DNA of 64,000 nucleotides, from NCBI RefSeq assembly GCF_003790525.1, contig NZ_CP033635.1. One strand, given 5' to 3'. Under the pieces are notes generated by a model. It searched no databases. It had not been told where the DNA came from and was given only the letters and a program-made list of their open reading frames with translations. The stretch is from Escherichia coli (GTDB lineage: Bacteria > Pseudomonadota > Gammaproteobacteria > Enterobacterales > Enterobacteriaceae). The number at the start of each line of letters is the position of its first letter. The stretch's first letter is position 1. Of this stretch, positions 43,395-56,626 are shown piece by piece. Both the position numbers and the translations under genes were made by a program.

Positions 43395-43746
43395 GGTTCA
43401 CCTCCAGTTCAGGTTTACGCGCTTTACGAGTACCTGATTTGATCAACACAATCCCGGCGACCAGGGTGGTTAACCCGGCAATTTTCATCAGCGATAAACT
43501 TTCGTCGAATAACAAAACGCTAAACAAGGTAATAAATAAAATACCGATACCTTCCCACAGCGCATAAGCCACGCCTAAGGCGATCTTTTTAACGGCGAAA
43601 GAGAGAAATATATACGACAGAGAAATCATCACCAGCATTAAAATAAAGCCGCCATTTCCCTCACTGACGCTCGCCCATTTCATAGACAGCGTACCGGTAA
43701 TTTCTGTAGCAATAGCCAGACCTAATAAAATCCAATAAATATACAT
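43381..43746 (-). CDS. mdtJ: SMR-family spermidine exporter subunit MdtJ
   Basis: 121 aa 4-TM SMR protein overlapping mdtI. Confidence 0.88.
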
Positions 43747-44157
43747 TGTCCTTCTCCTGCAAGAGAATTATTTTAATTTTCGCTTAATTCAGCGAAACCA
43801 AAGTAAAGTGGTCAAGCCCCGCGCATAGCGCAAGCTTAAGCAGGAGAAAGGACTAAAGCGCGTTGCGCCAGTGCTGCTCACCTACGAGCAAGATAGTGGA
43901 TGAGGTACGAAGATGGGTAAATGTAGAAAATAACGTCCTGAACAAATTGTCCATAATATTACAATTATCCGCAGTGTTGCTTCTCGTCATCGCGGATGAT
44001 AATTGTCCTCGGTAGTTGAACACGCCTGATTTGTATCATAGCTTAAGAATTAACTCAAAATATTTTCACTTCTTTACCTGAGCGGTTTGATTTTCGTTAT
44101 GATGACGGAGCGAAAAAGACATTATTATTAGCAAAGGAAGAAAAAACGGGGACAAGC

Positions 44158-44322
44158 ATGGCAAAGCCGATCATCACGCTCAATGGCCTAAAAATCGTCA
44201 TTATGTTGGGAATGCTGGTCATTATTCTCTGCGGTATCCGTTTTGCCGCCGAGATCATCGTGCCGTTTATTCTCGCATTATTTATTGCTGTTATATATAA
44301 CTTATTTCGCTTAACTAATTGA
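44158..44322 (+). pseudogene. tqsA: tqsA 5' fragment (first ~45 codons, then foreign tail and stop) cut by the inserted element
   Basis: [45 protein letters not shown] then IYNLFRLTN*; the rest of the gene resumes at 55720. Confidence 0.85.
44286..44294 (+). repeat. left copy of 9-bp junction direct repeat TGCTGTTAT (candidate att core/overlap)
   Basis: identical 9-mer at 55720-55728; flanking bases differ on both sides. Confidence 0.6.
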
Positions 44323-44365
44323 TTTAATTAAATAATTTGCACTACAAAAAGTGCCAAAAATCGCA

Positions 44366-44391
44366 AATTAACTACACCATTAACTACACCG
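44366..44391 (+). repeat. left copy of 26-bp direct repeat AATTAACTACACCATTAACTACACCG (tandem 12-mer; candidate integrase arm-type sites)
   Basis: exact copy at 55567-55592; followed in both copies by a related ACAACGTG(G/A)AACAA motif. Confidence 0.6.
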
Positions 44392-45466
44392 TTCGGCGCA
44401 CTGTATGAAACAACGTGGAACAAATAGACACAAGCGGCAGGCTATACCGTTATCATTTTTCAGCTATCCGTCATGAAGCTGGTGGATGATCACGGATAAC
44501 CAGGCATCTACAGCGCCTTAAAAAGCTGAACCCGACAAACATTTCTGCTTATCGGGTCCGATCGCTCTTTCTACTCGTGGCAGATGAGTTTACTAGGAAG
44601 GGGGGAACATTGTATCAGGCTATCCCCTTTCTGTGCTGATTCGGCTGGTGAATGATCTACTTGGGGCACTACACTTTTCGGATAGTGCGGGTATCCGGTT
44701 TTCTGCCTCATCGAATTTTAAGCCTTCTGACGGCCTGTATATCATTTCCTGTGGAGTTGCCGCCCTGATAGCGAATACTGCGGCAGCATGTGATTTACCC
44801 CCCGTTCTGTTGATGTTTGATGTGGCTGGTTGATGTGCTGCCATGTTTTCCGCCAATGGTGGAAAAGCCCACCAGCGCAACGCAGGACGCATAAAACCAT
44901 TGCGATGACTCTGGACGCAAAACCACGTTTAACGATGTTTTGCACTGAACCAGAATACTGTTCGTTTTTGTCTCGATGTCCGTACGTATTACGTCCGCAC
45001 CTAATCCGGCATCATGCCCACCAGCGTAACGCATTTTTTTAATTTCGTGGCTGTGCGTCCACCAGCTACGCCGGAATGGGGTATTCCGTTTCAACGGAAC
45101 AGGTATGACGAACATAATCGCACCTTCTCCCGAAAACGGTGCGACCTGCATCATCGAAATGGTGATTCAGCTACTCGGCGATTTTCACCATTCAGAATCT
45201 GGCGGGTGAGTTATCCAGCTTCCACCAATGGGGGATTCTGGAACAATCAACGGGTTACGCCTTATCAGCAAAAAAGCACATCAACTGTAAAGGAAATCGT
45301 TATGGTTGCTGGTGGGCTGCGTCACCATCATGGTGATGATGCTGTCCAGTCAGCCGGAACGGTTGAACAGGGTGGCTATGGGTCACTCTGTTGTGCGTTA
45401 TTTGCGTGATCCTGGTACGGGGTGACTATCTTTCAGATAGTCGGTTGCCTGGTTACACGAAAAAAT

Positions 45467-45769
45467 TTACTTCCTGCGTTTATCCTGCTTTGTATGCCCG
45501 TGCTGAATGCCCCGCAGTGGATCTTCTTTTTTCAGGTCGATCCCCATGTCCGTTAGTGTTTTTGTGGCGGCGGTTCTTATGGCACAAATCAGGTCTCTTT
45601 CCGGTTCCCGGGTTATGGTTGCCTTCCGGATGCATGCCGTTCGTCGTTCCGTTACATACTGACGCGCTTCATCACTTGCCGCCTGTTTCAGTAACTCACC
45701 CCAGCGATTAGCCGCCCGTCGCCATAAACCTTTCGCTTCCAGTTCTTCCGCTTTGTCATCATGCACCAT
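45467..45769 (-). CDS. ANR-like small regulator, paralog 2 (start at MVHDD.. assumed)
   Basis: MVHDDKAEELEAKGLWRRAANRWGELL... parallels the protein at 49352-49624. Confidence 0.55.
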   Translation of the reverse strand: MVHDDKAEELEAKGLWRRAANRWGELLKQAASDEARQYVTERRTACIRKATITREPERDLICAIRTAATKTLTDMGIDLKKEDPLRGIQHGHTKQDKRRK

Positions 45770-45883
45770 AAGCATAATCCCATTGATACCTGTTAACTCT
45801 GAATGGTTGGTTTCTGTTCTTTTGATAATTTCCCGCATAGCTTATTGTATGACAGTACTGTCCCACAATAAGGAGTTGCACGC

Positions 45884-46174
45884 ATGAGAATGACTAGGCA
45901 CAAAAAACAGATTCTTGAACTCTACAAACCTGAGTATCGCGATTGGGTGCGGGTGGAGGCCGGAGATCCGCCTTTTGATGTTCGTGGTGTGACAGTGCTG
46001 CTCTATGGTTCCGAATATCGGCGATATCACATAGAGGCAACACGAAGGACGCTAAACGCTATGGTTCGTGATAAGTTGCTGGAGCGTGTGAAAGTCCGTG
46101 AGCCACGTTTTGATGTGCGTATTGGTGGCGATGGTGCGCATTGCACGGTAATCCGCTATGGCCTGGTAAGGTAA
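45884..46174 (+). CDS. hypothetical protein (96 aa), divergent from the ANR-like gene
   Basis: ORF with upstream AGGAG-like RBS; no recognisable family. Confidence 0.4.
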   Translation: MRMTRHKKQILELYKPEYRDWVRVEAGDPPFDVRGVTVLLYGSEYRRYHIEATRRTLNAMVRDKLLERVKVREPRFDVRIGGDGAHCTVIRYGLVR

Positions 46175-46276
46175 GCCATCGGGTAAATCAGATGATTAAA
46201 TCACCAGAATGTAAATTTACATTCTGCCAGCCACCAGCTACCCTCCTCAAAATTGAGGACCCTTTTTATCAACTGG

Positions 46277-46558
46277 TTACCGCCGCAACCGTTCCGGCTT
46301 CTTCCACTGATAAGTGTTTTTCGCGCTCTCCTGATACATCGCCACGCGTCGACGGTATGCCAGCAACTCTAGTACTCTGATTCGTATGTCGCGCATATCC
46401 ACGCCGTTAAGCTCAATACCATCACGGCGCATTACATCAGCAACAACACGCACATAATTTTCGGCGGTCACGCTGTCCGGCTGCGTGGCCTGTTCGTCAT
46501 GCTGCTGGCTGATTCCGGTAACGCGGCGGATTAATCCCAGTAGTTCGACTTCTGTCAT
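46277..46558 (-). CDS. hypothetical protein (93 aa) adjacent to cos copy A; start taken at internal Met
   Basis: MTEVELLGLIRRVTGI...; the longer ORF 46277..46756 would read through the cos site and is judged an artefact. Confidence 0.4.
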   Translation of the reverse strand: MTEVELLGLIRRVTGISQQHDEQATQPDSVTAENYVRVVADVMRRDGIELNGVDMRDIRIRVLELLAYRRRVAMYQESAKNTYQWKKPERLRR

Positions 46559-46570
46559 TGTGCCCCCATC

Positions 46571-46648
46571 GCTCTGATAGTCTGGTGTCGTCGGGTCCTT
46601 TCCGGCATGTGGACCCGTTACGGGGCGTCGACCTCGCGCGTTTTCACT
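46571..46648 (+). other. lambda-like cos site copy A (cosQ-cosN-left-arm homology); cosN-like 12-mer GGGCGTCGACCT at 46602-46613
   Basis: GGGTCCTTTCCGG...GTTACG GGGCGTCGACCT CGCGCGTTTTCACTATTTATGAAAATTTTTCGG closely matches the recalled lambda cos junction (lambda cosN GGGCGGCGACCT). Confidence 0.75.
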
Positions 46649-46664
46649 ATTTATGAAAATTTTT

Positions 46665-46775
46665 CGGGATCCATGTCCGGTTTCTCTGCAAGTTAACCAT
46701 ATGAAAAATATAAAAACATGCTTTCCATGAACCGGACATGCGCAAAAAACAGACACTAAAACCGGACATCGAACC
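46665..46775. repeat. three CCGGACAT motifs in alternating orientation next to cos copy A (candidate cosB-like terminase-docking sites)
   Basis: ATGTCCGG near 46671, CCGGACATG near 46729, CCGGACATC near 46763. Confidence 0.45.
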
Positions 46776-46837
46776 AGTTAACCGAAAGTGTGCACAAATC
46801 ACATTCATTGCTGCGAGTGATTAACAAGTTATCGGCT

Positions 46838-47272
46838 TTACTGTTCTGTATCGGCTGATTGCTCCATGCTGGCACGGCGAACGCTTACGGCATGACGCCA
46901 CCCAGCCAGAAAGCCAGCCATTTTATTTCGTGCCTTGCTCACATCTTCCGGTGAATAGCCGTAAATATGCAAACCTTCATCAAATCGATGTTCTGTTTCT
47001 TCACTGGAGTACTCGTCACGCTCAGATGAAAGCAGCCTCGCAAACATAATTTTTTCCAGCGCACTGGTTTCTACGTGATATCCGATGGTCTGAAGATGGC
47101 TTTTACCTGAATACCAAAGCAATGTATGCCCGATGTGATAACCGCCAGACTTTCCGCGATCCGCATTAAGATACGGCATCCCCTGTTTGGTCCATGCGCG
47201 AATAGTGGTTCTGTTAACCTTGAAATGTTCAGCTATTTCCTGCTGACTTACAAAACAAGCTTTATCAATCAT
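46838..47272 (-). CDS. Nu1-like small terminase-type DNA-binding protein (wHTH N-terminus, divergent C-terminus); possibly a packaging-redirection factor
   Basis: VSQQEIAEHFKVNRTTIRAWTKQGMPYL aligns with lambda Nu1 VNKKQLADIFGASIRTIQNWQEQGMPVL; 144 aa versus 181 aa for Nu1. Confidence 0.65.
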   Translation of the reverse strand: MIDKACFVSQQEIAEHFKVNRTTIRAWTKQGMPYLNADRGKSGGYHIGHTLLWYSGKSHLQTIGYHVETSALEKIMFARLLSSERDEYSSEETEHRFDEGLHIYGYSPEDVSKARNKMAGFLAGWRHAVSVRRASMEQSADTEQ

Positions 47273-47334
47273 AATGTTACCTTAACTGCATGGTTAAATA
47301 TCAATCAAGTGGTGGTGGTGTCACCTTCACGGAA

Positions 47335-47405
47335 AAACGTCATAAATAGCGAAAACGTGCGAGGTCGACGCCCCGTAACGGGTCCACATGCCGGAAAGGA
47401 CCCGC
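47335..47405 (-). other. lambda-like cos site copy B, inverted relative to copy A; cosN-like 12-mer (reverse complement) at 47362-47373
   Basis: reverse complement reads GGGTCCTTTCCGGCATGTGGACCCGTTACG GGGCGTCGACCT CGCACGTTTTCGCTATTTATGA; lies about 70 bp upstream of the terS-like start in the lambda cosN-to-Nu1 orientation. Confidence 0.7.
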
Positions 47406-47428
47406 AAAAAAAGCCGGATTTCTCCGGC
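47406..47428 (-). terminator. intrinsic terminator after the capsid/decoration genes
   Basis: minus strand GCCGGAGAAATCCGGC followed by U7. Confidence 0.65.
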
Positions 47429-47502
47429 CTTGTCTCAGATGGTTTTCAGTATGCGATAGATGTCGCCGTCATCGCCCTGGTTTGTGCCATCGTTCCCCCT
47501 GC

Positions 47503-47838
47503 TTATCGGGCCAGCGGCTGAACGGATACGCCGGAACCCGCAAAGGCGGCGCATTTTTTCGCATCGGTGTCGACGCTCTCAGGCCAGTTAACGGCGGCAA
47601 TATTGAATATCCCCGTCTTGTAACACTGTGCTGATTTCTGCTTTGACGTGTCCACAGGGTACGAGGTCAGATAAACAGCCTTGCCAGATTCCTTACCATC
47701 CCACGCCTTAAACTCGCCATTGTCTGCCAGCATCAGCGGGGTAAATTCCTGAATAACGCCAGCATCAGCGGCAAAATGTACCAGCGTCGTGGATACCTGT
47801 TGGCTGCCTGAAAATAACTCAATGTATGGAGCGTCCAT
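47503..47838 (-). CDS. lambda gpD-like head decoration protein
   Basis: TPLMLADNGEFKAWDG and AFAGSGVSV match lambda gpD TPLMLDTSSRKLVAWDG and AFAGTAISIV; 111 aa. Confidence 0.8.
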   Translation of the reverse strand: MDAPYIELFSGSQQVSTTLVHFAADAGVIQEFTPLMLADNGEFKAWDGKESGKAVYLTSYPVDTSKQKSAQCYKTGIFNIAAVNWPESVDTDAKKCAAFAGSGVSVQPLAR

Positions 47839-47849
47839 AGAATCCCCCG

Positions 47850-48905
47850 TTAAGCAATTTTGACGGTAACAAATTTGCGAATATCTGCCGGTACAGGCTG
47901 CGGTGCGCTGTGCGTCTGCACGTACTCAATCGCCGGATCGCCGTCCTCAATCCAGTTTTTCGGGTAGTACATGTTTTGCGTTGCGCCCGTTCTTACCGCT
48001 TCCTGATCCATAATCGCACCATATGCCACCAGCCCTTTATTGTTGGTGTTACCCAGGACCAGCAAATCAGGCTCAAGGAAATATTTTTCGGTCCCGTCGC
48101 TGTCAGTGTATTTGCCGGAATAGACGATAAGGGCCAGATCACCAAGATAGCCTTTAAAGCTCACCACTTCGCCCAGGTTTTTACAGGCCAGCTCGGCGGC
48201 GGATTCTGATCCACGGGAAAGATCGTACAGTTCACGGAATTTTTTAAAGCTGCGTAATGTGCGCCATACCTCACCGCCCATAATCATGACGTTGGCGGGG
48301 CAACCTGCCTGATCAGCATAAAGCTCGATGTCATAGATTGGGTCGTGCATGTCTTTATCCTGCTGGGACCATTTTTTACCACTGGCCTGCTGTATGATGC
48401 AGTTTTCCGGTATTTTCCAGTCGATTTCATAGCGTTCTATGCCTTCGCCCTCAATGATGTTTTTTCCGGTCGTTACCGCATTCACCGCCAGCCATTCCAC
48501 GCGCGCCTTAATGGCGTTTATCTGGCGGCGCATGTTGCCAGTAATCAGGCGCATACGGCGGTAAGTTGGATCGTTAAGCTGTGCCGGATCTTCTCCATCC
48601 ATGCGCATGATGGTCTTTGTTGGATCGATTTCGTGCTTTGGCTTCATGTAGCCTGGTTTAATCGTGCTGGTTTCGTACCCTTTATCGCGCTGGACCTGAC
48701 TACCCACCATAGGAGAACAGAACGCTGACATCGTAACCTCTTCAATGTCCAGGGTGTCCAGCATGATGTTTTGGGTGTTGAAGGTCGCCACGTTCGGGAA
48801 AAACAGCGTGGTAAACAGCGGACTAAATTTATATTCCGAAATATCCCCGCGATTCAGGTACGCGAAAAGCTGGTTAGTTGTAAGTGCCTTTGCTTTGCCT
48901 GTCAT
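47850..48905 (-). CDS. lambda gpE-like major capsid protein
   Basis: 351 aa; KPGYMKPKHEIDPTKT, DPTYRRMRLITGNMRR and YPKNWIEDGDPA...SAP...FVTVKIA align with lambda gpE along the whole length. Confidence 0.85.
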   Translation of the reverse strand: MTGKAKALTTNQLFAYLNRGDISEYKFSPLFTTLFFPNVATFNTQNIMLDTLDIEEVTMSAFCSPMVGSQVQRDKGYETSTIKPGYMKPKHEIDPTKTIMRMDGEDPAQLNDPTYRRMRLITGNMRRQINAIKARVEWLAVNAVTTGKNIIEGEGIERYEIDWKIPENCIIQQASGKKWSQQDKDMHDPIYDIELYADQAGCPANVMIMGGEVWRTLRSFKKFRELYDLSRGSESAAELACKNLGEVVSFKGYLGDLALIVYSGKYTDSDGTEKYFLEPDLLVLGNTNNKGLVAYGAIMDQEAVRTGATQNMYYPKNWIEDGDPAIEYVQTHSAPQPVPADIRKFVTVKIA

Positions 48906-49111
48906 TATTCACCTCCGTGAACCTGATTGATACCCAGCGCCGCACGCAAATAGGTGCGCACCTGCCAGCCTGTTGACGGCTCAACCATCGCCAGCGGATC
49001 AAGTCCTGCCGCAATGCCTGCTTTTACATTCTGCTGGTGGCGTTCCTTGAGCGCCTCCACGATGTCGGGGCTTATGTAGACCGTCACCCCGCCTTTTTTC
49101 TCTTCTGCCAT
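48905..49111 (-). CDS. hypothetical 68-aa protein translationally coupled (TAATG) to the capsid gene
   Basis: stop overlaps the gpE-like ATG; first gene of the capsid operon. Confidence 0.5.
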   Translation of the reverse strand: MAEEKKGGVTVYISPDIVEALKERHQQNVKAGIAAGLDPLAMVEPSTGWQVRTYLRAALGINQVHGGE

Positions 49112-49145
49112 AGTCAGAAATTCCTCTTTGACTTAAAAAATCATA

Positions 49146-49163
49146 ACTGGATGTTCATCCAGT
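49146..49163. promoter_or_regulatory. perfect palindrome ACTGGATG-TT-CATCCAGT upstream of the capsid operon (candidate operator/activator site)
   Basis: 8-bp arms with 2-bp spacer, about 35 bp upstream of the first operon ATG (49111). Confidence 0.4.
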
Positions 49164-49322
49164 CCTGATTATAATCATGATTGCATTTTGCGCAACAATA
49201 TTGAGTTACGTTGCAAATTATGAAATGATTATCCCGATCATGTGTGTCAGTTCACCATAAAAAACCTCGTATACAAAAGCCCCATAAGCCCCCTGTGACC
49301 TTATCGGGCTTTTTTTAGGCGT

Positions 49323-49344
49323 AAAAAAGCCGGATTGCTCCGGC
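49323..49344 (-). terminator. intrinsic terminator after the ANR-like gene (same stem family as 47406-47428)
   Basis: minus strand GCCGGAGCAATCCGGC followed by U6. Confidence 0.6.
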
Positions 49345-49351
49345 TGTGTGC

Positions 49352-49624
49352 TCACTTCTGCGGGTAGTTGCGCCATATTGCTTTGCCAATACCAGCTATC
49401 CCCATTTGTTTTTCAGTGCGATTAACTGACCTTTTCAGAGCGCCTAAATCATCCGGCGGCTCCGGTGGCCTCTGTGCCTTACGGATACATTCCGCGCGAC
49501 GCATTGCCACCTGTTCGCGCTCCTTGTCTGTCTCCACCAGCCTCATAACTTCACCCCATCGCGCCGCCGCCCTCCGGTAAAAGCCTTTTGCCTCGAGTTC
49601 CTCCGCTATGCGGTCATGTACCAT
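49352..49624 (-). CDS. ANR-like small regulator, paralog 1 (start at MVHDR.. assumed)
   Basis: MVHDRIAEELEAKGFYRRAAARWGEVM...; longer ORF start would overlap ssb. Confidence 0.55.
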   Translation of the reverse strand: MVHDRIAEELEAKGFYRRAAARWGEVMRLVETDKEREQVAMRRAECIRKAQRPPEPPDDLGALKRSVNRTEKQMGIAGIGKAIWRNYPQK

Positions 49625-49634
49625 CGTCACCCCC

Positions 49635-50045
49635 TCAGAACGGAATATCATCACCGTAAGGGTCATCGCCTCCCGCTGGTGGCTGATTACCCTGTGTGCC
49701 TGTGGTTTTGCGTCTGTTCCCGCCAGGACGTGCCGCACGGGCACTGATTACGCTGTCTGCAATAACCTGCCAGCCCTGCCGCGTTTCCCCGTTCTGTCCG
49801 GTCCACTGGCTGACCTGCATCGTGCCGGATACGCTGGCAACGTCGCCTTTTTGATGTTTAGCCAGAAAGTCGGCCTGTTTGCCAAATGCGATGACCGATA
49901 ACCATAACGTCGCCTGTCCGTCCTGTGCCTGGCCGCATGGTAAAGATACCGCCATACGCGCCAGCGTCATCGGTGTACCCTTACTGGTCTGTTTTACCTG
50001 CGGGTCGTCCACCAGCCGCCCGTAAGCTGCTATCTGTGCTGTCAT
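49635..50045 (-). CDS. single-stranded DNA-binding protein (SSB-like OB fold with acidic DDIPF tail)
   Basis: 136 aa; C-terminal ...DPYGDDIPF typical of SSB; Gly/Pro-rich linker. Confidence 0.75.
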   Translation of the reverse strand: MTAQIAAYGRLVDDPQVKQTSKGTPMTLARMAVSLPCGQAQDGQATLWLSVIAFGKQADFLAKHQKGDVASVSGTMQVSQWTGQNGETRQGWQVIADSVISARAARPGGNRRKTTGTQGNQPPAGGDDPYGDDIPF

Positions 50046-50284
50046 GCTGTCTGCTCTCCGGTTTTAACGTTGATGGTTGTTACCTGTTCTGCTTCGGCAA
50101 TATCCCGCTCTGTCAGCGTGGCAAAGTTTGCCGCCGTCGTTGTCATGAATGCGCTTATCAGTTCGGGATGTGCTTTCGCGTATCCTTCCCCTGTGTTGCG
50201 GTCGATGATTTTTATCGCCACCCTCAGCCAGTGCTCTGTAAGGTCAATGGCGCGGTGATCTGTCTTTTTGTGGCTTACCTTCAT
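50042..50284 (-). CDS. hypothetical protein (80 aa)
   Basis: ORF overlapping the ssb start (coupled); no recognisable family. Confidence 0.45.
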   Translation of the reverse strand: MKVSHKKTDHRAIDLTEHWLRVAIKIIDRNTGEGYAKAHPELISAFMTTTAANFATLTERDIAEAEQVTTINVKTGEQTA

Positions 50285-50287
50285 GAT

Positions 50288-50611
50288 TTACTCCAGAGTA
50301 CCGCTATTGCTGCTGTCGTTAACCGGATACCAGGCAAATACCATCGATTCACCACAGTGAACAAACTTCTTATCCGGCAGATAAAGGCACTCGCACATTC
50401 CCTCATCAGGACTATGCGGACTCATGCCCAGCTCACTGGTCAGCACGGGTAAGATTTCGCGGCAGGTGTTCCCCGCACCGAAATAATCAACCTCACAAAG
50501 CGCCCATGCAGCAATCGGGCTGTACCATTCCGTGCCGTCGTCGTCTTTGAACTTAGCCCACCAGCCAGGAAGGGCAGTTGATATGCTCAGTGTTTCAATT
50601 TCAGTGTTCAT
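50288..50611 (-). CDS. hypothetical protein (about 107 aa; start uncertain)
   Basis: ORF 50288..50656 with internal Met; Cys-rich, no recognisable family. Confidence 0.45.
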   Translation of the reverse strand: MNTEIETLSISTALPGWWAKFKDDDGTEWYSPIAAWALCEVDYFGAGNTCREILPVLTSELGMSPHSPDEGMCECLYLPDKKFVHCGESMVFAWYPVNDSSNSGTLE

Positions 50612-50659
50612 AAATTTACCTTCGGTATTTTGTCCTGCTGTTCGATTTTTATTCATTGC

Positions 50660-50870
50660 TCACCATCTCTCACTTTTACTACTCACTTTTTAAAGCGTCT
50701 CGCTTCGTCTCACTTGAGATTTTTGTGTTTTGTATGTGCATGTTTCATAAGTGTTTTTTCACTGCTCACTTTTGAGCATGTATACAGGTGAGAAAGTGAG
50801 TAATTGTGTTAATATTTTGTAAAAACCTCACCATTACTCACTTTTACTACTCACTTTTTACAGTGGTCCT
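50660..50870. repeat. iteron array (CTCACTT heptamers, two 24-bp direct repeats) - candidate replication origin of the element
   Basis: at least 6 direct and 2 inverted CTCACTT copies between 50669 and 50856; CTCACTTTTACTACTCACTTTTTA at 50669 and 50839; directly 3' of the primase-helicase gene. Confidence 0.6.
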
Positions 50871-52264
50871 ACATCATCACCATCAATGTAAATCACGGCG
50901 TCTTTTTCCAGTTTGGCTAACCATCGCCGCATATTTTTCACGTCATACCCAAGCCGTTTCATGTCATCACGTAACAGCGGGATCGTGCACTTGTCGCCGT
51001 TCTGTGTGCGTGAACGGATGCACCCCCATAGCGCGGTATGGTTTTCCGTCTTGTTGCCTGCCTCCTCGATGCGCTCCAGTTCAGCAGGGGCGCGGGGAAC
51101 GTCAATCACCACCATGGACACAATTTCTTCGCCATCTGTATCGGTGAACACCTCCACGCTTTTAAGGTCGTATGCACTCTCTTTTGGCTCCTCTGCGTCC
51201 TTCATCTTCGTACACGCCGCAACCAGTGCTGTAACGTCTGAATTTTCCCTGCTGATTCGGTACTCTGCATCAAGCGCGGCACGGAATGCACTGGAACCAC
51301 GCGCCCCCTTTGTTTCATCCTTGCCGGAATGGTGAACCACCAGCACCGTGGCCCCTGTGGCCTGCTTTATCGCGTCACACCCCTGGATAAATGCGCCCAT
51401 ATCACGGGAATCATTTTCATCATTCCCACCAAAGCAACGGGCCAGCGTGTCGATCACAATCAGCCGCACATTTTCGCCCGTTCTGCTCTTAACAAGTCCG
51501 GCAGTCCTGATAACCTGCTCCACATAGTCAGGCGATGCAGGGAAAACAGGCGCGTTAATGATGCACAAATCTGTAACCACCTTGTCGTGGGTTATCTCCC
51601 ACGCCTTAACGCGGCGTTTTACGCCCATGCTGCCTTCACCAGCGATATAGATAACCGCACCCTTACTTACCCTGCGGCCTCCCCATGCCATACCTGTGGC
51701 AACATGGCACGACCAGGAAATGGCGAGGAACGATTTATAAGAACCGCTGGCCCCGTAGGTGCTGCATAATGACTCAGCCGGAATAAGCCCCTTAATGACG
51801 TAGCTTTGCTGCGCATCGAATCCCTCAGAACCCCATGAGATGGGAAGTGTGATTTTTCGCTTTCCGCCATTCATGACCAGGCTTTCCCCTCTCTCCCATG
51901 TTTCCCGTAGTCGTGGTAGCTGGTCGCTCCAGTCCTCCAGCAGTTCGAAATTTTCAGAAAGTAGCCGCGCCTCCTGGACTCCGGCGATCGCCAGTTTTGT
52001 GGCAATGGTCAGCATCTGCATATCGTCCAGGTTTCCGGCGCGTATGACCTTTACCCTGTATCGTCCTTCATCAACAATCTGTAAGTTGTCCAGTTCGCTT
52101 AACTGATAACGGCCCAGATAAACCGGAGGGATGGGATCGCCTGCTTTTTTGGCCTGTGCAATCATGTAATGTTCTGCAAAGGAGTGAGCATTATCACCCG
52201 CAAAAATAACCGCCTCAGTGTGTTTATCTTTCGGTAACAGTTTTACGTTCGGTGCAAGTTTCAT
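50858..52264 (-). CDS. replication initiator: primase-associated N-domain + RecA-like/AAA helicase (pri-rep type)
   Basis: 468 aa; Walker A GASGSYKS, Walker B LIVIDTL, VLVVHHSGKD; C-terminal wH-like tail. Confidence 0.8.
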   Translation of the reverse strand: MKLAPNVKLLPKDKHTEAVIFAGDNAHSFAEHYMIAQAKKAGDPIPPVYLGRYQLSELDNLQIVDEGRYRVKVIRAGNLDDMQMLTIATKLAIAGVQEARLLSENFELLEDWSDQLPRLRETWERGESLVMNGGKRKITLPISWGSEGFDAQQSYVIKGLIPAESLCSTYGASGSYKSFLAISWSCHVATGMAWGGRRVSKGAVIYIAGEGSMGVKRRVKAWEITHDKVVTDLCIINAPVFPASPDYVEQVIRTAGLVKSRTGENVRLIVIDTLARCFGGNDENDSRDMGAFIQGCDAIKQATGATVLVVHHSGKDETKGARGSSAFRAALDAEYRISRENSDVTALVAACTKMKDAEEPKESAYDLKSVEVFTDTDGEEIVSMVVIDVPRAPAELERIEEAGNKTENHTALWGCIRSRTQNGDKCTIPLLRDDMKRLGYDVKNMRRWLAKLEKDAVIYIDGDDVGPL

Positions 52265-52548
52265 TTCTTACCCCCTGCGACCAGCATTTCACGGATTTTG
52301 CGGATATAACTTGCAGCACGTTTCTGATTAACGGCTTTACGATGGCCCACCAGCGTGAAATCACGCCGGAACTGATAAACAGGCATAACGCAGTCATATT
52401 CGTAGCCTTCACGGCGGTAAGTGATGCGACGTTCCTCCACGCCCTTAATCATTACCGTGCCGCCGTAGTTATCACGGAAAATATCGCCGGGACGGATTTC
52501 AGGACGAGCGGGGCCGCTGGCATTAACGCCAGAATTTTTATTTTTCAT
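52261..52548 (-). CDS. hypothetical protein (95 aa) translationally coupled to the replication gene
   Basis: stop overlaps the downstream start; basic protein. Confidence 0.45.
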   Translation of the reverse strand: MKNKNSGVNASGPARPEIRPGDIFRDNYGGTVMIKGVEERRITYRREGYEYDCVMPVYQFRRDFTLVGHRKAVNQKRAASYIRKIREMLVAGGKK

Positions 52549-52553
52549 GTTTT

Positions 52554-52781
52554 TTATTCTCCGGTGTGCTGTTCTTTATATCTGTCGTGAATTGCCATCA
52601 CTGTATTTAATTCATTAATAACAGCCGTTAATAGCGTACGCACGGCAGAAAACATCATTGAATCAGATTCATCGCCACTTTCCTGCACATCAATTAAATT
52701 AAGTAGTAATGCGTCCATTTCCTTTGCGCGGATTAATGCCTTTTCACAATGAAAAATAACACCAAAGGGTATTTTATTCAT
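52554..52781 (-). CDS. hypothetical protein (about 75 aa)
   Basis: ORF with internal Met start; first gene after the divergent operator region. Confidence 0.4.
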   Translation of the reverse strand: MNKIPFGVIFHCEKALIRAKEMDALLLNLIDVQESGDESDSMMFSAVRTLLTAVINELNTVMAIHDRYKEQHTGE

Positions 52782-53056
52782 GACTCCCCTCCTGACGGAT
52801 ACGGGCGGCGAATACAGCGACACAACCGGACGGGCAACGGTTACGCGCTTCGCGTTCCGTCCAGGCGGTCACGTGGATAATTTGAGATTCTCCGGCACTC
52901 AGTGCCAGAAAACGCCACACAAAGGCGGTTTGTGTGTGCGCTAGTCGTGGGGTATGCTGTGTTCCAGCCATAATCGTTACTCCTGTTAACGGTTTGGTTA
53001 GACGCCCTGCATGTGTTACAGCACTGCGGGGCGTTGTCTTTTTAACGGCTTTCGTG

Positions 53057-53104
53057 ATAGGGTGTACACCTATCAAGCAAAAACATAACGCTATAGGTGT
53101 ACAC
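53057..53104. promoter_or_regulatory. two TAGG(G)TGTACAC palindromic operator-like sites immediately upstream of the RHH gene
   Basis: ATAGGGTGTACACCTAT at 53057-53073 and ATAGGTGTACAC at 53093-53104, ending at the ATG. Confidence 0.6.
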
Positions 53105-53299
53105 ATGTCAACAGTTATTAAGCGAGATAAAAAACCAAAGGGAACAGGAAAAGCCCCCCCATTCCATATGCGAATAGCTCCAGAACTGAAAGAGCAGTTT
53201 GATAATGAGGCCAGCAATGATGGGGTAAGCCTAGCCAACTGGCTTAAAGAGTTGGGGCGCGCCGAACTAAAGCGACGCGGCATTGAACCTAAAGGCTGA
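53105..53299 (+). CDS. ribbon-helix-helix (CopG/Arc-like) DNA-binding protein, 64 aa
   Basis: beta-strand/helix pattern PFHMRIAPELKEQF...SLANWLKELGRAEL typical of RHH regulators/antitoxins. Confidence 0.6.
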   Translation: MSTVIKRDKKPKGTGKAPPFHMRIAPELKEQFDNEASNDGVSLANWLKELGRAELKRRGIEPKG

Positions 53300-53302
53300 T
53301 GT

Positions 53303-53428
53303 ATGACTGAAAAGCAGACCGATAACAAACTTTCTCTACCAGAGAATAAACCAGCAGGCTTCTTACCAAGAAAAATCCTTGATGAGATCAAACGCCGCCA
53401 GCGCCGCAAGGCCAAAGAGCAGGAATAG
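53303..53428 (+). CDS. small basic ORF (41 aa) immediately downstream of the RHH gene
   Basis: ATG 4 nt after the RHH stop; product MTEKQTDNKLSLPENKPAGFLPRKILDEIKRRQRRKAKEQE. Confidence 0.3.
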   Translation: MTEKQTDNKLSLPENKPAGFLPRKILDEIKRRQRRKAKEQE

Positions 53429-53752
53429 CCCACCAGCAAGCCAGCACACTGATCACATTGGCCACCGTGACAGGTGGCCTTTTCTTTGCCCGTTATCCGG
53501 CAATTGTGGCGCTTCGCCACACGGTTGATATAATTCCCCTGCTCAGATTCATTTTTTGCGCGGCAGGTAAATTGTTCAGAAAGGCGGCTCCTTATCGGGG
53601 CCGCTTTTTTTATGTCTGAAAAACCGCGATTTTGTTGTTTTTCAGTTTCACCAGGCCGAACGAAGCCCCGCCCATGTTCGGGCGTATATCCAGTCTTCAT
53701 GGTTAAATCTCTGTATTAGTGGATGGGTGGCGGCTGTGTGCCGCCAGTCTTT

Positions 53753-53941
53753 TTAGTGAACTGCCTCGCAGCTTTCCTTCCATGCCAGAACTTCGGATAA
53801 AGACCAGCCAACGGAACGACCGCCCAGCTTACGCCGTGATGGGAATTGTCCGGCCTTTTCCAGGCGGTAGCGGCATGAGCGGCTAAGGCCTGTTAGCTTT
53901 TCGCATTCTTTTTCACGTATAAAGCGATCAGTGCTTAACAC
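53753..53941 (-). CDS. alpA: AlpA/Vis-family phage regulatory protein (excisionase-like)
   Basis: 62 aa; ...IREKECEKLTGLSRSCRYRLEKAGQFPSRRKLGGRSVGW... typical AlpA fold signature. Confidence 0.8.
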   Translation of the reverse strand: MLSTDRFIREKECEKLTGLSRSCRYRLEKAGQFPSRRKLGGRSVGWSLSEVLAWKESCEAVH

Positions 53942-54315
53942 TATTGCCCCCTTTCGTTTCTTAAAGAGTTATTTCGTGTTCTATTGCGTTGGGATGTGTC
54001 TGATTGTGTCAGGGTGATTCAGAGTTGGCAAATGTTGGTGGCGGGTATTTTACAGAAACGGGGTGATTTTAATAAAAATCATTTTAATTCAGTATTATGC
54101 AAAGGCATAAAATCTCGTTTTATGCCTTTTTTCTCACTATTTAAAGCGTTATTCGCTAATGTATAAAAAACCAGTTGAGCATTAAAAATCAGCAACTTAT
54201 AAATCTGTATACTTTTTGACCTCTTGTTCGTGGTTGTTTCACGTTGTTGTGTATTGTTGCACGTTGTATCTGTGCACTTATCCAGTATGCGCATACTGAA
54301 AAAACACGAAAAAAA

Positions 54316-55566
54316 TTATTTTCTTCTGGCTACTGGTAGCGTGGTTACGTTTTCATGTGCTCCCGCCAGTATCTCCAACCGCTCCACCCACATATCCAGC
54401 GCATTGCGTTTCGCATCCAGATAACGGGAATGATTATAAACTCGCTGCATTCCTGGCATCTGGTGGCCTGTAAGCTGCTCCACGACGTGAGGATCCACGC
54501 CTAAATCGTTCAGCATCGTTGTAAAGGTGCGCCGGATGTCATGCAGTGACCATTGAGGGTGTTTTAGCCTCCTGTGCGCTAATCTGCCGTACTGCGATAC
54601 GCTGGCCTCCTGTTTCACTTCCCCCAGTAATAAGCCCGTGTGCCTGTTCTGCTCCACCAGCCGCGTGACGAACGGCAGGATCGCTTCCGGTATGGGCCGG
54701 AATATTGCGACCTTCGTTTTGCTGTGCTCCTTCGGAACGGTCCAGAGCATTTCCGTGAAATCCCACTCCCCGATCTCCGATAACCTCAGTTCTACCGTCC
54801 TGGCTCCGAAGACAATCAGGAGGCGGATTAGTGCGACGTAGTAAGGGGAAAATATTTTTTTGTCCAGTGCCTGCAATAATTCGCCCAGTTCTTTGGTGCT
54901 TAAGACACGTTCGCTTATATCCGGTTTTTTCCCAACGTCCGCCACGTTCAGATCGTCCAGAACGTTGCTGATTGCATAGCGCCGCCTCCGGCAAAACTTA
55001 AGCGCCTGTTTGCACGCCTGTAGCACGAATCCGGCAGTAACAGGCGTTCGCTTTGCCACCCGATCAAAACAGGCCAGCCAGTGCCGTAGCTCGCATTTAT
55101 CCAGCGGCATAGCACCAATGTGCTGTATTACGTGATTATTAAGTCGCCTTTTCAGGGCGATATAATCCACGCGGTTTTCCTTTACGTAAGACTCAAGCCA
55201 GTAGGTGAGCGCATCTCCAACCGTTACAGGCTTTAACGCTTCCTGCATGGTGTAATTCATCTCATGACGTGGATTTTTCCCCTCAGCCAGCCATGCGCGA
55301 CACTGGGCGGCTTTTTCCCTGGCTGATTTCAGGCTCAGATCAGGATAATTTCCCAGCTTAATACGTTCCGGTCGTGTCTCTCTTCCCGTTCCGGCCCTGT
55401 AAGTGAAATACCAGGTTAAAAGGCCGCTGGTTGAATGCCTGACGCTCAGATTTCCACCGTCATTAAGAAAGGCTGTTTTTTGGGCGGGTGTGCCGTTGAT
55501 TTTCCTTAGCTGTGTATCGCTCAGCTTGTTAAGTGCTCTGGTCATAATTTTGAATCCGGTCATCAC
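54316..55566 (-). CDS. int: tyrosine site-specific integrase (P4-type)
   Basis: 416 aa; C-terminal catalytic region with ...HDIRRTF... and ...LTGHQMPGMQRVYNH... (R..H..R..Y). Confidence 0.88.
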   Translation of the reverse strand: MMTGFKIMTRALNKLSDTQLRKINGTPAQKTAFLNDGGNLSVRHSTSGLLTWYFTYRAGTGRETRPERIKLGNYPDLSLKSAREKAAQCRAWLAEGKNPRHEMNYTMQEALKPVTVGDALTYWLESYVKENRVDYIALKRRLNNHVIQHIGAMPLDKCELRHWLACFDRVAKRTPVTAGFVLQACKQALKFCRRRRYAISNVLDDLNVADVGKKPDISERVLSTKELGELLQALDKKIFSPYYVALIRLLIVFGARTVELRLSEIGEWDFTEMLWTVPKEHSKTKVAIFRPIPEAILPFVTRLVEQNRHTGLLLGEVKQEASVSQYGRLAHRRLKHPQWSLHDIRRTFTTMLNDLGVDPHVVEQLTGHQMPGMQRVYNHSRYLDAKRNALDMWVERLEILAGAHENVTTLPVARRK

Positions 55567-55592
55567 AATTAACTACACCATTAACTACACCG
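55567..55592 (+). repeat. right copy of the 26-bp direct repeat AATTAACTACACCATTAACTACACCG
   Basis: exact copy of 44366-44391, directly upstream of the int start codon. Confidence 0.6.
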
Positions 55593-55719
55593 ATCGTTGC
55601 ACAAAGGGCTACAACGTGAAACAAGCTGGAACAAGAAAAATCACAAATTTGTTTATAATCAAAAACATAATGCACAACCTGAAACATTATGAAACGGCAA
55701 AAAACACTAATTGATAAAG

Positions 55720-56626
55720 TGCTGTTATTCTTAACCCGCTGGTGCAACACATGGTCCGCTGGCGAGTGCCGCGTGTACTGGCGGTGTCGATTTTGATGAC
55801 CATCATCGTGATGGCGATGGTGTTGCTGTTAGCTTATCTGGGTTCCGCGCTCAACGAGTTGACGCGGACGTTACCGCAATATCGCAACTCTATTATGACG
55901 CCGCTGCAAGCGATTGAACCGTTGTTGCAACGCGTAGGGATTGATGTCTCAGTTGACCAACTGGCGCATTACATTGATCCGAACGCGGCAATGACGTTGC
56001 TCACCAACTTATTGACGCAGTTATCTAATGCCATGTCATCAATCTTTTTATTGCTGCTGACGGTGCTGTTTATGTTGCTCGAAGTGCCACAATTGCCCGG
56101 AAAATTTCAGCAAATGATGGTGCGTCCGGTTGAAGGGATGGCGGCGATTCAGCGTGCGATTGACAGTGTGTCTCATTATCTGGTGCTGAAAACAGCCATC
56201 AGCATCATCACCGGCCTGGTCGCCTGGGCGATGCTCGCCGCACTCGATGTTCGCTTCGCTTTTGTCTGGGGATTGCTGGCCTTTGCGCTTAATTACATCC
56301 CTAATATTGGTTCAGTTCTCGCGGCAATCCCCCCTATCGCTCAGGTACTGGTGTTTAATGGCTTCTACGAAGCGTTGCTGGTGCTGGCGGGATATCTGCT
56401 AATTAATCTGGTCTTCGGCAATATTCTGGAGCCGCGCATCATGGGACGTGGGCTGGGGCTTTCCACATTGGTGGTATTTTTGTCGTTGATTTTTTGGGGA
56501 TGGTTGTTAGGACCGGTGGGTATGCTGCTTTCCGTGCCGTTAACAATTATTGTCAAAATTGCGCTTGAACAAACAACGGGAGGTCAAAGCATCGCCGTTC
56601 TGTTAAGCGATCTCAACAAAGAGTGA
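55720..56626 (+). pseudogene. tqsA: tqsA 3' fragment (about 300 codons) downstream of the inserted element
   Basis: in-frame continuation ...[26 protein letters not shown]... after a stop codon at 55715. Confidence 0.85.

Follow-up and report, generated by a model that had tools for sequence, protein, structure and literature searches.

The 64-kb stretch of Escherichia coli DNA analysed here (the window) carries an element that, judging from its gene order and DNA identity, is a phage-inducible chromosomal island (PICI) of the EcCICFT073 type. Two hairpins of the same stem, T1 (47413-47428) and T2 (49329-49344), are found on the minus strand of this island, in the same direction as its genes. 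We consider it likely that the two are intrinsic terminators of an ordinary kind, which belong to a single homologous island subfamily and mark, and possibly mediate, the junctions between cassettes.

Both hairpins had been picked out in an earlier note on this DNA as sharing the stem GCCGGA-N4-TCCGGC, and both are present as described there (Table 1). T1 corresponds to GCCGGATTTCTCCGGC on the plus strand and reads GCCGGAGAAATCCGGC followed by seven T on the minus strand; T2 corresponds to GCCGGATTGCTCCGGC on the plus strand and reads GCCGGAGCAATCCGGC followed by six T on the minus strand. Their likeness extends beyond the hairpins themselves, to 24 of 27 nt (47407-47433 versus 49323-49349; repeat family D3). 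Each is composed of a 6-7 bp stem with five GC pairs and a 4-nt loop that forms a GNRA tetraloop on the minus strand, as in the stem-loops of intrinsic terminators, and in both cases the T-run lies directly 3' of the stem. The folding energy of both core hairpins is -10.4 kcal/mol (-13.6 and -12.6 kcal/mol when the flanks are included), the z-scores of the local folds are -2.8 and -2.6, and T2 is among the candidates listed by a terminator scan of the window. Since no T-run is found on the plus-strand side of either hairpin, both are predicted to be unidirectional. T2 is located 7 nt past the stop codon of the preceding gene, and T1 is located 7 nt past the stop codon of c1501 in CFT073 and past a remnant of this gene in the window. 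As terminators, T1 and T2 are textbook and unremarkable. They share with the E. coli intrinsic terminators that carry GNRA tetraloops the GC-rich stem of 6-7 bp, the loop, the adjoining U6-7 tract, the position a few nt past a stop codon and the orientation of the gene; what sets the island unit apart is its reuse, two to three times per ~11-kb element and across lineages, and nothing else.

If T1 and T2 act as the canonical Rho-independent terminators that they resemble, T2 would end the early/replication operon that runs from alpA to perC, and T1 would end a separately promoted capsid cassette composed of p68, the capsid and decoration genes and the c1501 remnant; transcription would therefore stop 2 nt before a cosQ-cosN-cosB site and rpp. 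The earlier note had placed T1 at the close of the capsid operon and T2 behind an ANR-like gene. The first assignment stands in so far as the operon ends at T1, and has to be amended in that the sequence directly before T1 is the 3' remnant of a c1501-like gene and not the decoration gene. Compared to CFT073, a deletion at 47493/47494 has removed the start and most of this 137-amino-acid gene, which is annotated as a head-tail connector in some strains, and has kept its last ~60 nt before T1. The second assignment was not confirmed, as the gene before T2 belongs to the PerC family (Pfam PF06069, E=4.5e-39). For a PerC-like PICI gene, one paper reports that matches to ANR come lower in the BLASTp and conserved-domain results (PMC11773190).

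Within the 64 kb, the pattern GCCGGAN4TCCGGC has exactly two matches, T1 and T2, and is absent from the ~50 kb of chromosome that the window includes. The number expected from 100 dinucleotide-preserving shuffles is 0.00, a null model that disregards that terminators are selected GC palindromes. For this reason, and because the exact 20-mer of the hairpin is common as a single copy in unrelated bacteria, the case that T1 and T2 are not a chance pair rests on comparative data rather than on the shuffles.

Reuse of the hairpin in related islands

Viral contigs were scanned for GCCGGAGNAATCCGGCTTTT, which yielded at least 120 stretches, and 165 instances of the hairpin were analysed. Most of these are located in enterobacterial islands, in which, among the matches listed, the upstream and downstream flank classes combine combinatorially: the PerC end is joined to six downstream flank classes, and several upstream genes are found in front of the downstream classes of the cos type. 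The hairpin was also found in at least 20 unrelated AT-rich phage contexts. A total of 65 distinct hairpin junctions was obtained, and one 22-nt PerC end recurs unchanged in front of four different downstream modules. Relatives were also sought by a genome-contig scan with the capsid protein, which found none; the diversity described here is drawn from viral contigs and E. coli genomes.

A conservation plot aligned on the exact hairpin was not used for the hairpin, for which it would be circular; conservation was instead read from 78 loci that had been selected with the PerC protein only. In 67 of the 78 loci, the exact stem follows the PerC stop codon by 6-7 nt, and six carry a single change that breaks a pair. 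The loop is GAAA in 38 loci, GCAA in 17, GTAA in 11 and GGAA in one; loop positions 1, 3 and 4 are thus invariant and only the N of the GNRA motif varies.

When the architectures of the islands were reconstructed with a protein panel, every exchangeable cassette (PerC, p74, the capsid cassette and an unnamed gene X upstream of cos) was found to be closed by the hairpin, and the islands hold one, two or three copies of it, all co-oriented with the genes. With the hairpin written as T, these architectures are SSB-PerC-T-HK97 capsid (cf-PICI), SSB-PerC-T-p74-T-HK97 capsid, SSB-PerC-T-p68-capsid-Dec-c1501-T-cos-Rpp-cos-p93 (CFT073 type), PerC-T-p74-T-p68-...-T-cos (three copies), SSB-X-T-cos-cos-p93 and PerC-T-cos-cos-p93. 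T1 and T2 would be copies of one island terminator unit made of a stop codon, a CA-rich spacer of 5-11 nt, the hairpin and a T-run; in E. coli PICIs and cf-PICIs, each exchangeable cassette would have this unit as its 3' end.

To locate the ends of homology, junctions were compared in pairs whose members resemble each other on one side of the hairpin but are unrelated on the opposite side. In the pairs similar on the left, similarity stops 4-9 nt past the hairpin in 364 of 373 cases; in those similar on the right, it stops 1-7 nt before the hairpin in 189 of 189. Independently of these junction pairs, when other E. coli islands are matched to the window by megablast, the alignments start at 49323/49324, which is the end of the T-run of T2. 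One locus, L010 (PerC-GAAA-T5-late region), combines the GAAA loop of a left copy with the T5 and the flank of a right copy, and looks like an island of the L003 type that has lost its p74 cassette by a crossover inside the hairpin. The architectures, the junctions and the breakpoints in these relatives strongly bear out the earlier proposal that the hairpins mark boundaries between satellite modules. Cassettes would be gained, lost or swapped with their junctions at the ~25-nt unit, and the simplest route would be homologous recombination between copies of the unit or accretion of cassettes made of a gene and its terminator.

It was also observed that, at ~3950-4000 of L003 (minus strand), just past the PerC terminator, the p74 cassette opens with ~25 nt resembling the 3' end of perC (GAAACGGTATGGCGCATTACCGGG versus GAAATATGGCGCAATTACCAGG). 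The p74 cassette may originally have stood behind a different copy of perC.

Outside the islands, the exact 20-mer is present in at least 120 stretches from very diverse bacteria of many phyla and in one archaeon. In these background loci the hairpin typically has an upstream A-tract, and among the matches listed more than one copy was found in 1 of 120 loci. Given this distribution, the hairpin is evidently a generic terminator design that has been reached convergently. T1 and T2 might likewise be two independent, convergent terminators for which GCCGGA-GNRA-UCCGGC with a U-tract is merely a favoured design, an explanation with which the almost always single-copy background loci and the unrelated AT-rich phage contexts agree. 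The island copies, however, have a CA-rich spacer and lack the upstream A-tract (34 of 59 island junctions versus 6 of 121 background instances), occur two to three times per ~10 kb and flank cassettes that are present in some variants and absent from others, and the homology breakpoints map to them. Since the CA-rich spacer without an A-tract and the multi-copy islands set them off from the background, T1 and T2 are treated here as copies of one island subfamily and not as a coincidence, and their independent origin appears improbable to us.

The cos site adjoining T1

T1 directly adjoins a cosQ/cosN block, a cos site that was absent from the earlier note. Past the U-tract of T1, the minus strand continues with 2 nt and then with GGGTCCTTTCCGG...GTTACGGGGCGTCGACCTCGC. 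As in cos sites of the lambda type, the cosQ motif GGGTCCT is located ~30 nt upstream of a cosN that resembles GGGCGGCGACCT. The 45-nt cosQ-cosN pattern has two matches with no mismatches, in inverted orientation (46593-46637, plus strand, and 47359-47403, minus strand), and the two cos copies form a 78-nt inverted repeat (91%) around the rpp-like gene, with the hairpin only beside the T1-side copy.

EcCICFT073 reportedly possesses two functional lambda-like cos sites (PMC6092414), and c1503, which is RppA, redirects packaging to one of the two (PMC6739421). The window resembles this cos1/cos2 and Rpp system (PMC6092414, PMC6739421) in that two lambda-like cosQ/cosN copies flank an rpp homologue downstream of capsid and decoration genes. 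It differs in the terminator abutting cosQ, which is not mentioned in the papers searched.

What occupies this position in phages was read from 120 contexts retrieved by the lambda-type cosN alone. The same cos block is present in these 120 lambda-type contigs, and the GC hairpin is present in two of the contexts, both of the island type; the phage-type contexts are without it. In the ~25 nt upstream of cosQ, directly before CGGGTCCTTTCCGG and in the slot of the islands' GC hairpin, the phage-type contexts carry a conserved AT-rich palindrome (GATGATAATCATTATCATTTT), which together with its T-run reads GATGATAATnATTATCATTTT. This palindrome folds weakly as RNA (-3.9 kcal/mol) and presumably resembles a Fur-box-like sequence.

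The hairpin might thus be primarily a DNA-level site for a recombinase or for the packaging machinery, either attC-like or a cosQ auxiliary that replaces the palindrome of the helper phage, its terminator look being incidental. Such a function would account for the coincidence of the breakpoints with the hairpin, for a stem that stays invariant while its flanks diverge, and for the location of the hairpin 2 nt from cosQ in several cos types, in the slot filled by a different conserved palindrome and T-run in lambda-type phages. By contrast, the hairpin is strand-asymmetric, with a T-run on one side, it is always co-oriented with the genes and placed 5-11 nt past their stop codons, and the variation of its loop keeps GNRA on the transcribed strand only. 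Moreover, most copies (those after PerC and p74) are far from cos, the second cos of the window is without a hairpin, no GTTRRRY-type core is present, and identical hairpins are ordinary terminators in unrelated bacteria. We consider it unlikely that the hairpin is a DNA-level site in the first place, and favour the view that it is a reused intrinsic terminator. More tentatively, the ~25-nt unit (CA spacer, hairpin and T-run) may be the actual crossover point of PICI and cf-PICI cassettes, and its placement 2 nt upstream of cosQ may be required for packaging, by shielding cos from transcription or by aiding cosQ; we regard this further proposal as possible rather than probable.

In three other loci (L009, L035 and L115), two hairpin-cos units that differ in cos type point in the same direction; the unit located upstream of the capsid cassette has a GC-rich cosN, and the one downstream of it is of the lambda type. 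Islands of this kind may use two helper-phage families.

Other features of the island

PICIs of the EcCICFT073 type carry int, alpA, a replication module, PerC, capsid and decoration homologues, rpp and two cos sites, and are ~11-15 kb long with a dedicated att site. The element of the window shows this gene order, 93% DNA identity and two cos copies: from annotation and Pfam, the minus strand reads int, alpA, ..., a RepA-type helicase, SSB, PerC, T2, the second hairpin, a promoter/operator region, the leader hairpin, p68, the E-type major capsid gene, the head decoration gene, T1, cos, the rpp homologue, the inverted cos copy and p93. Over 46800-50100, the window shows 100% identity to E. coli PKF11, in which the island sits in tqsA, and 93% identity to EcCICFT073, the island of CFT073; related sequence is present in 1,528 of 5,426 complete E. 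coli genomes. A second PerC-family gene, annotated in PKF11, is located at 45467-45769 (minus strand), near the far end of the island. The features discussed here are listed in Table 1.

Table 1. Positions in the window of the hairpins, cos sites and genes discussed in the text.
Feature	Position	Strand	Remarks
Second cos copy, inverted	46592..46669	+	No hairpin adjoining
rpp-like gene	46838..47272	-	144 amino acids, helix-turn-helix/Nu1-like; between the two cos copies
Lambda-like cos site next to T1	47327..47404	-	cosQ GGGTCCT 47403-47397; cosN-like GGGGCGTCGACCT 47374-47362
T1 U-tract (T7)	47406..47412	-	End 2 nt from cosQ
T1 hairpin	47413..47428	-	GCCGGA-GAAA-UCCGGC; end of capsid operon; same sequence in CFT073
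3' remnant of c1501-like gene	47429..47493	-	358 nt of the CFT073 gene deleted in the window
Head decoration protein gene	47503..47838	-	PF02924, E=4e-17
Major capsid protein gene (E-type)	47850..48905	-	PF03864, E=2e-49
p68 gene	48905..49111	-	68 amino acids; first gene of capsid cassette
Leader hairpin/palindrome	49139..49170	-	Followed by T6 (49140-49135); just upstream of p68 ribosome-binding site; overlaps TATAAT
Second hairpin	49275..49316		Arms 49279-49288 and 49300-49309; A/T runs on both sides; T7 49310-49316 on plus strand
T2 U-tract (T6)	49323..49328	-	Homology to cf-PICI-type islands stops here
T2 hairpin	49329..49344	-	GCCGGA-GCAA-UCCGGC; 7 nt past PerC stop codon; same sequence in CFT073
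PerC-family regulator gene	49352..49624	-	PF06069, E=4.5e-39; last gene of replication/early operon

A weaker plus-strand hairpin had been described back-to-back with T2. This second hairpin is indeed present, and it is a conserved strong hairpin that has been weakened by mutation in the window. Of 30 distinct relatives, 29 have a perfect 10-bp stem (GCCCGATAAG/CTTATCGGGC) with a loop that varies freely, and the window alone has a C-to-G mismatch. With this mismatch, the folding energy is -8.4 instead of -14.4 kcal/mol for the plus strand and -15.4 instead of -18.8 kcal/mol for the minus strand. As A/T runs flank it, the second hairpin is predicted to be bidirectional. In every case it marks the left border of the capsid cassette, where it could serve as a backup of T2 on the minus strand or halt antisense transcripts that run out of the cassette on the plus strand. 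The strongest terminator-like hairpin of the last gene of the island, at 44528-44559 (minus strand), contains CCCGATAAG, an arm motif common to the second hairpin, and the hairpins bearing CCCGATAAG may constitute a second reused hairpin family.

Upstream of p68, the leader hairpin (49135-49175, minus strand) has 13 pairs, a folding energy of -13.8 kcal/mol and a z-score of -4.5. Relatives show one compensatory change and several one-sided (G-U) changes, and the hairpin might act as an attenuator in the leader or as an operator at the DNA level. Close to it, an inverted repeat, ATTGCA-N5-TGCAAT in the relatives and imperfect here, is found at 49180-49197, where it overlaps the putative -35 of the capsid-cassette promoter; this operator-like repeat is strongly conserved among the islands. 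A weak SymR-antitoxin-like match was obtained with Rfam at 52966-53038 (plus strand; 24.7 bits, E=0.44, far below the gathering score), near an alpA/icd-like region.

Discussion

Several points weigh against the view that T1 and T2 are terminators of common descent placed at cassette junctions. Because the exact 20-mer has been reached convergently in many phyla and in unrelated AT-rich phage contigs, sequence identity alone would be weak evidence of common descent. In a covariation check, all seven stem pairs were invariant in 16 of 16 sequences, so that covariation lends no support to the RNA structure; the sole variants, seen among the PerC-selected loci, are single changes that break a pair. 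The breakpoint pairs are not independent events, and most of the loci had been found through either the hairpin or PerC. Termination, which is predicted from the sequence as is its efficiency, may be partial at T1 and T2, since a 6-bp stem is short. In addition, no convincing promoter is found for rpp itself, which is located downstream of T1: the sole candidate matches the consensus at 9 of 12 positions, promoter-like sites in the rpp region are fewer than in shuffles, and no weight was given to this promoter. Finally, the PICI literature searched and a search with the literal sequence returned no mention of a terminator and no transcript 3'-end or reporter evidence, and a search of the literature for Term-seq data on O157 or CFT073 gave nothing usable.

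Some of these points would also suit hairpins that serve as RNA 3'-end stabilisers, RNase processing sites or targets of antitermination or regulation, with read-through as the regulated norm. The position of rpp downstream of T1 without a clear promoter and the short stem, which may leak, are compatible with such a role, as is the second hairpin backing up T2, which suggests that T2 alone may leak. Nevertheless, no candidate antiterminator or nut/put-like element was found, Rfam searched at a permissive threshold over 43500-56000 gave no known RNA family over the hairpins, and the U-tract follows the stem without a gap, as it does in true terminators. The processing or recognition role put forward in the earlier note has no specific support, and we judge it very unlikely that the hairpins are RNA elements of this kind rather than terminators.

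Three further known systems were compared with the island hairpins. REP/BIME elements (repetitive extragenic palindromes and the mosaic elements that contain them) are ~35-nt imperfect palindromes with a conserved GTAG/CTAC end and many chromosomal copies; their GCCGGA...TCCGGC outer stem, extragenic location and ability to attenuate transcription recall the hairpins. This candidate was rejected, as T1 and T2 are 16 nt long instead of ~35 nt, possess neither an internal REP sequence nor a GTAG/CTAC end, carry a U-tract and count only two copies, both in the island, in 64 kb. Integron attC sites (57-141 nt, with R''/L''/L'/R' boxes and a GTTRRRY core) are alike in that the same kind of palindrome ends each cassette and that the number of copies equals the number of cassettes. 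They were also rejected: the hairpins are far shorter than attC, have no R or L boxes, no GTTRRRY core and no IntI-type integrase context, and are followed by a U-tract. In the mosaic genomes of lambdoid phages, short conserved boundary or linker sequences are found at module junctions, and optional 'moron' cassettes, composed of a gene and a terminator, end in a terminator. By analogy, the reuse of the island unit fits this known idea of boundary sequences and gene-terminator cassettes. The island linker differs in being one specific 16-nt hairpin with a T-run that is common to PICI and cf-PICI lineages, and it possibly mediates recombination or merely travels with each cassette. Neither the repeated use of a single terminator unit at all cassette boundaries of a satellite family nor the placement of this unit next to cosQ is mentioned in the PICI papers searched.

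If T1 and T2 are reused terminators at cassette junctions, the transcription map of these PICIs would be a simple one, composed of the early operon, a terminator, the capsid or interference cassette, a second terminator and the cos-rpp region. The shared unit would also provide a concrete explanation of how cassettes are shuffled between the lineages that build their own capsid and those that do not, and the hairpin could be used in practice as a landmark for delimiting cassettes in the annotation or engineering of PICIs. Lastly, the juxtaposition of a terminator and cosQ suggests that cos may need to be insulated from transcription in a satellite that is devoid of phage antitermination.

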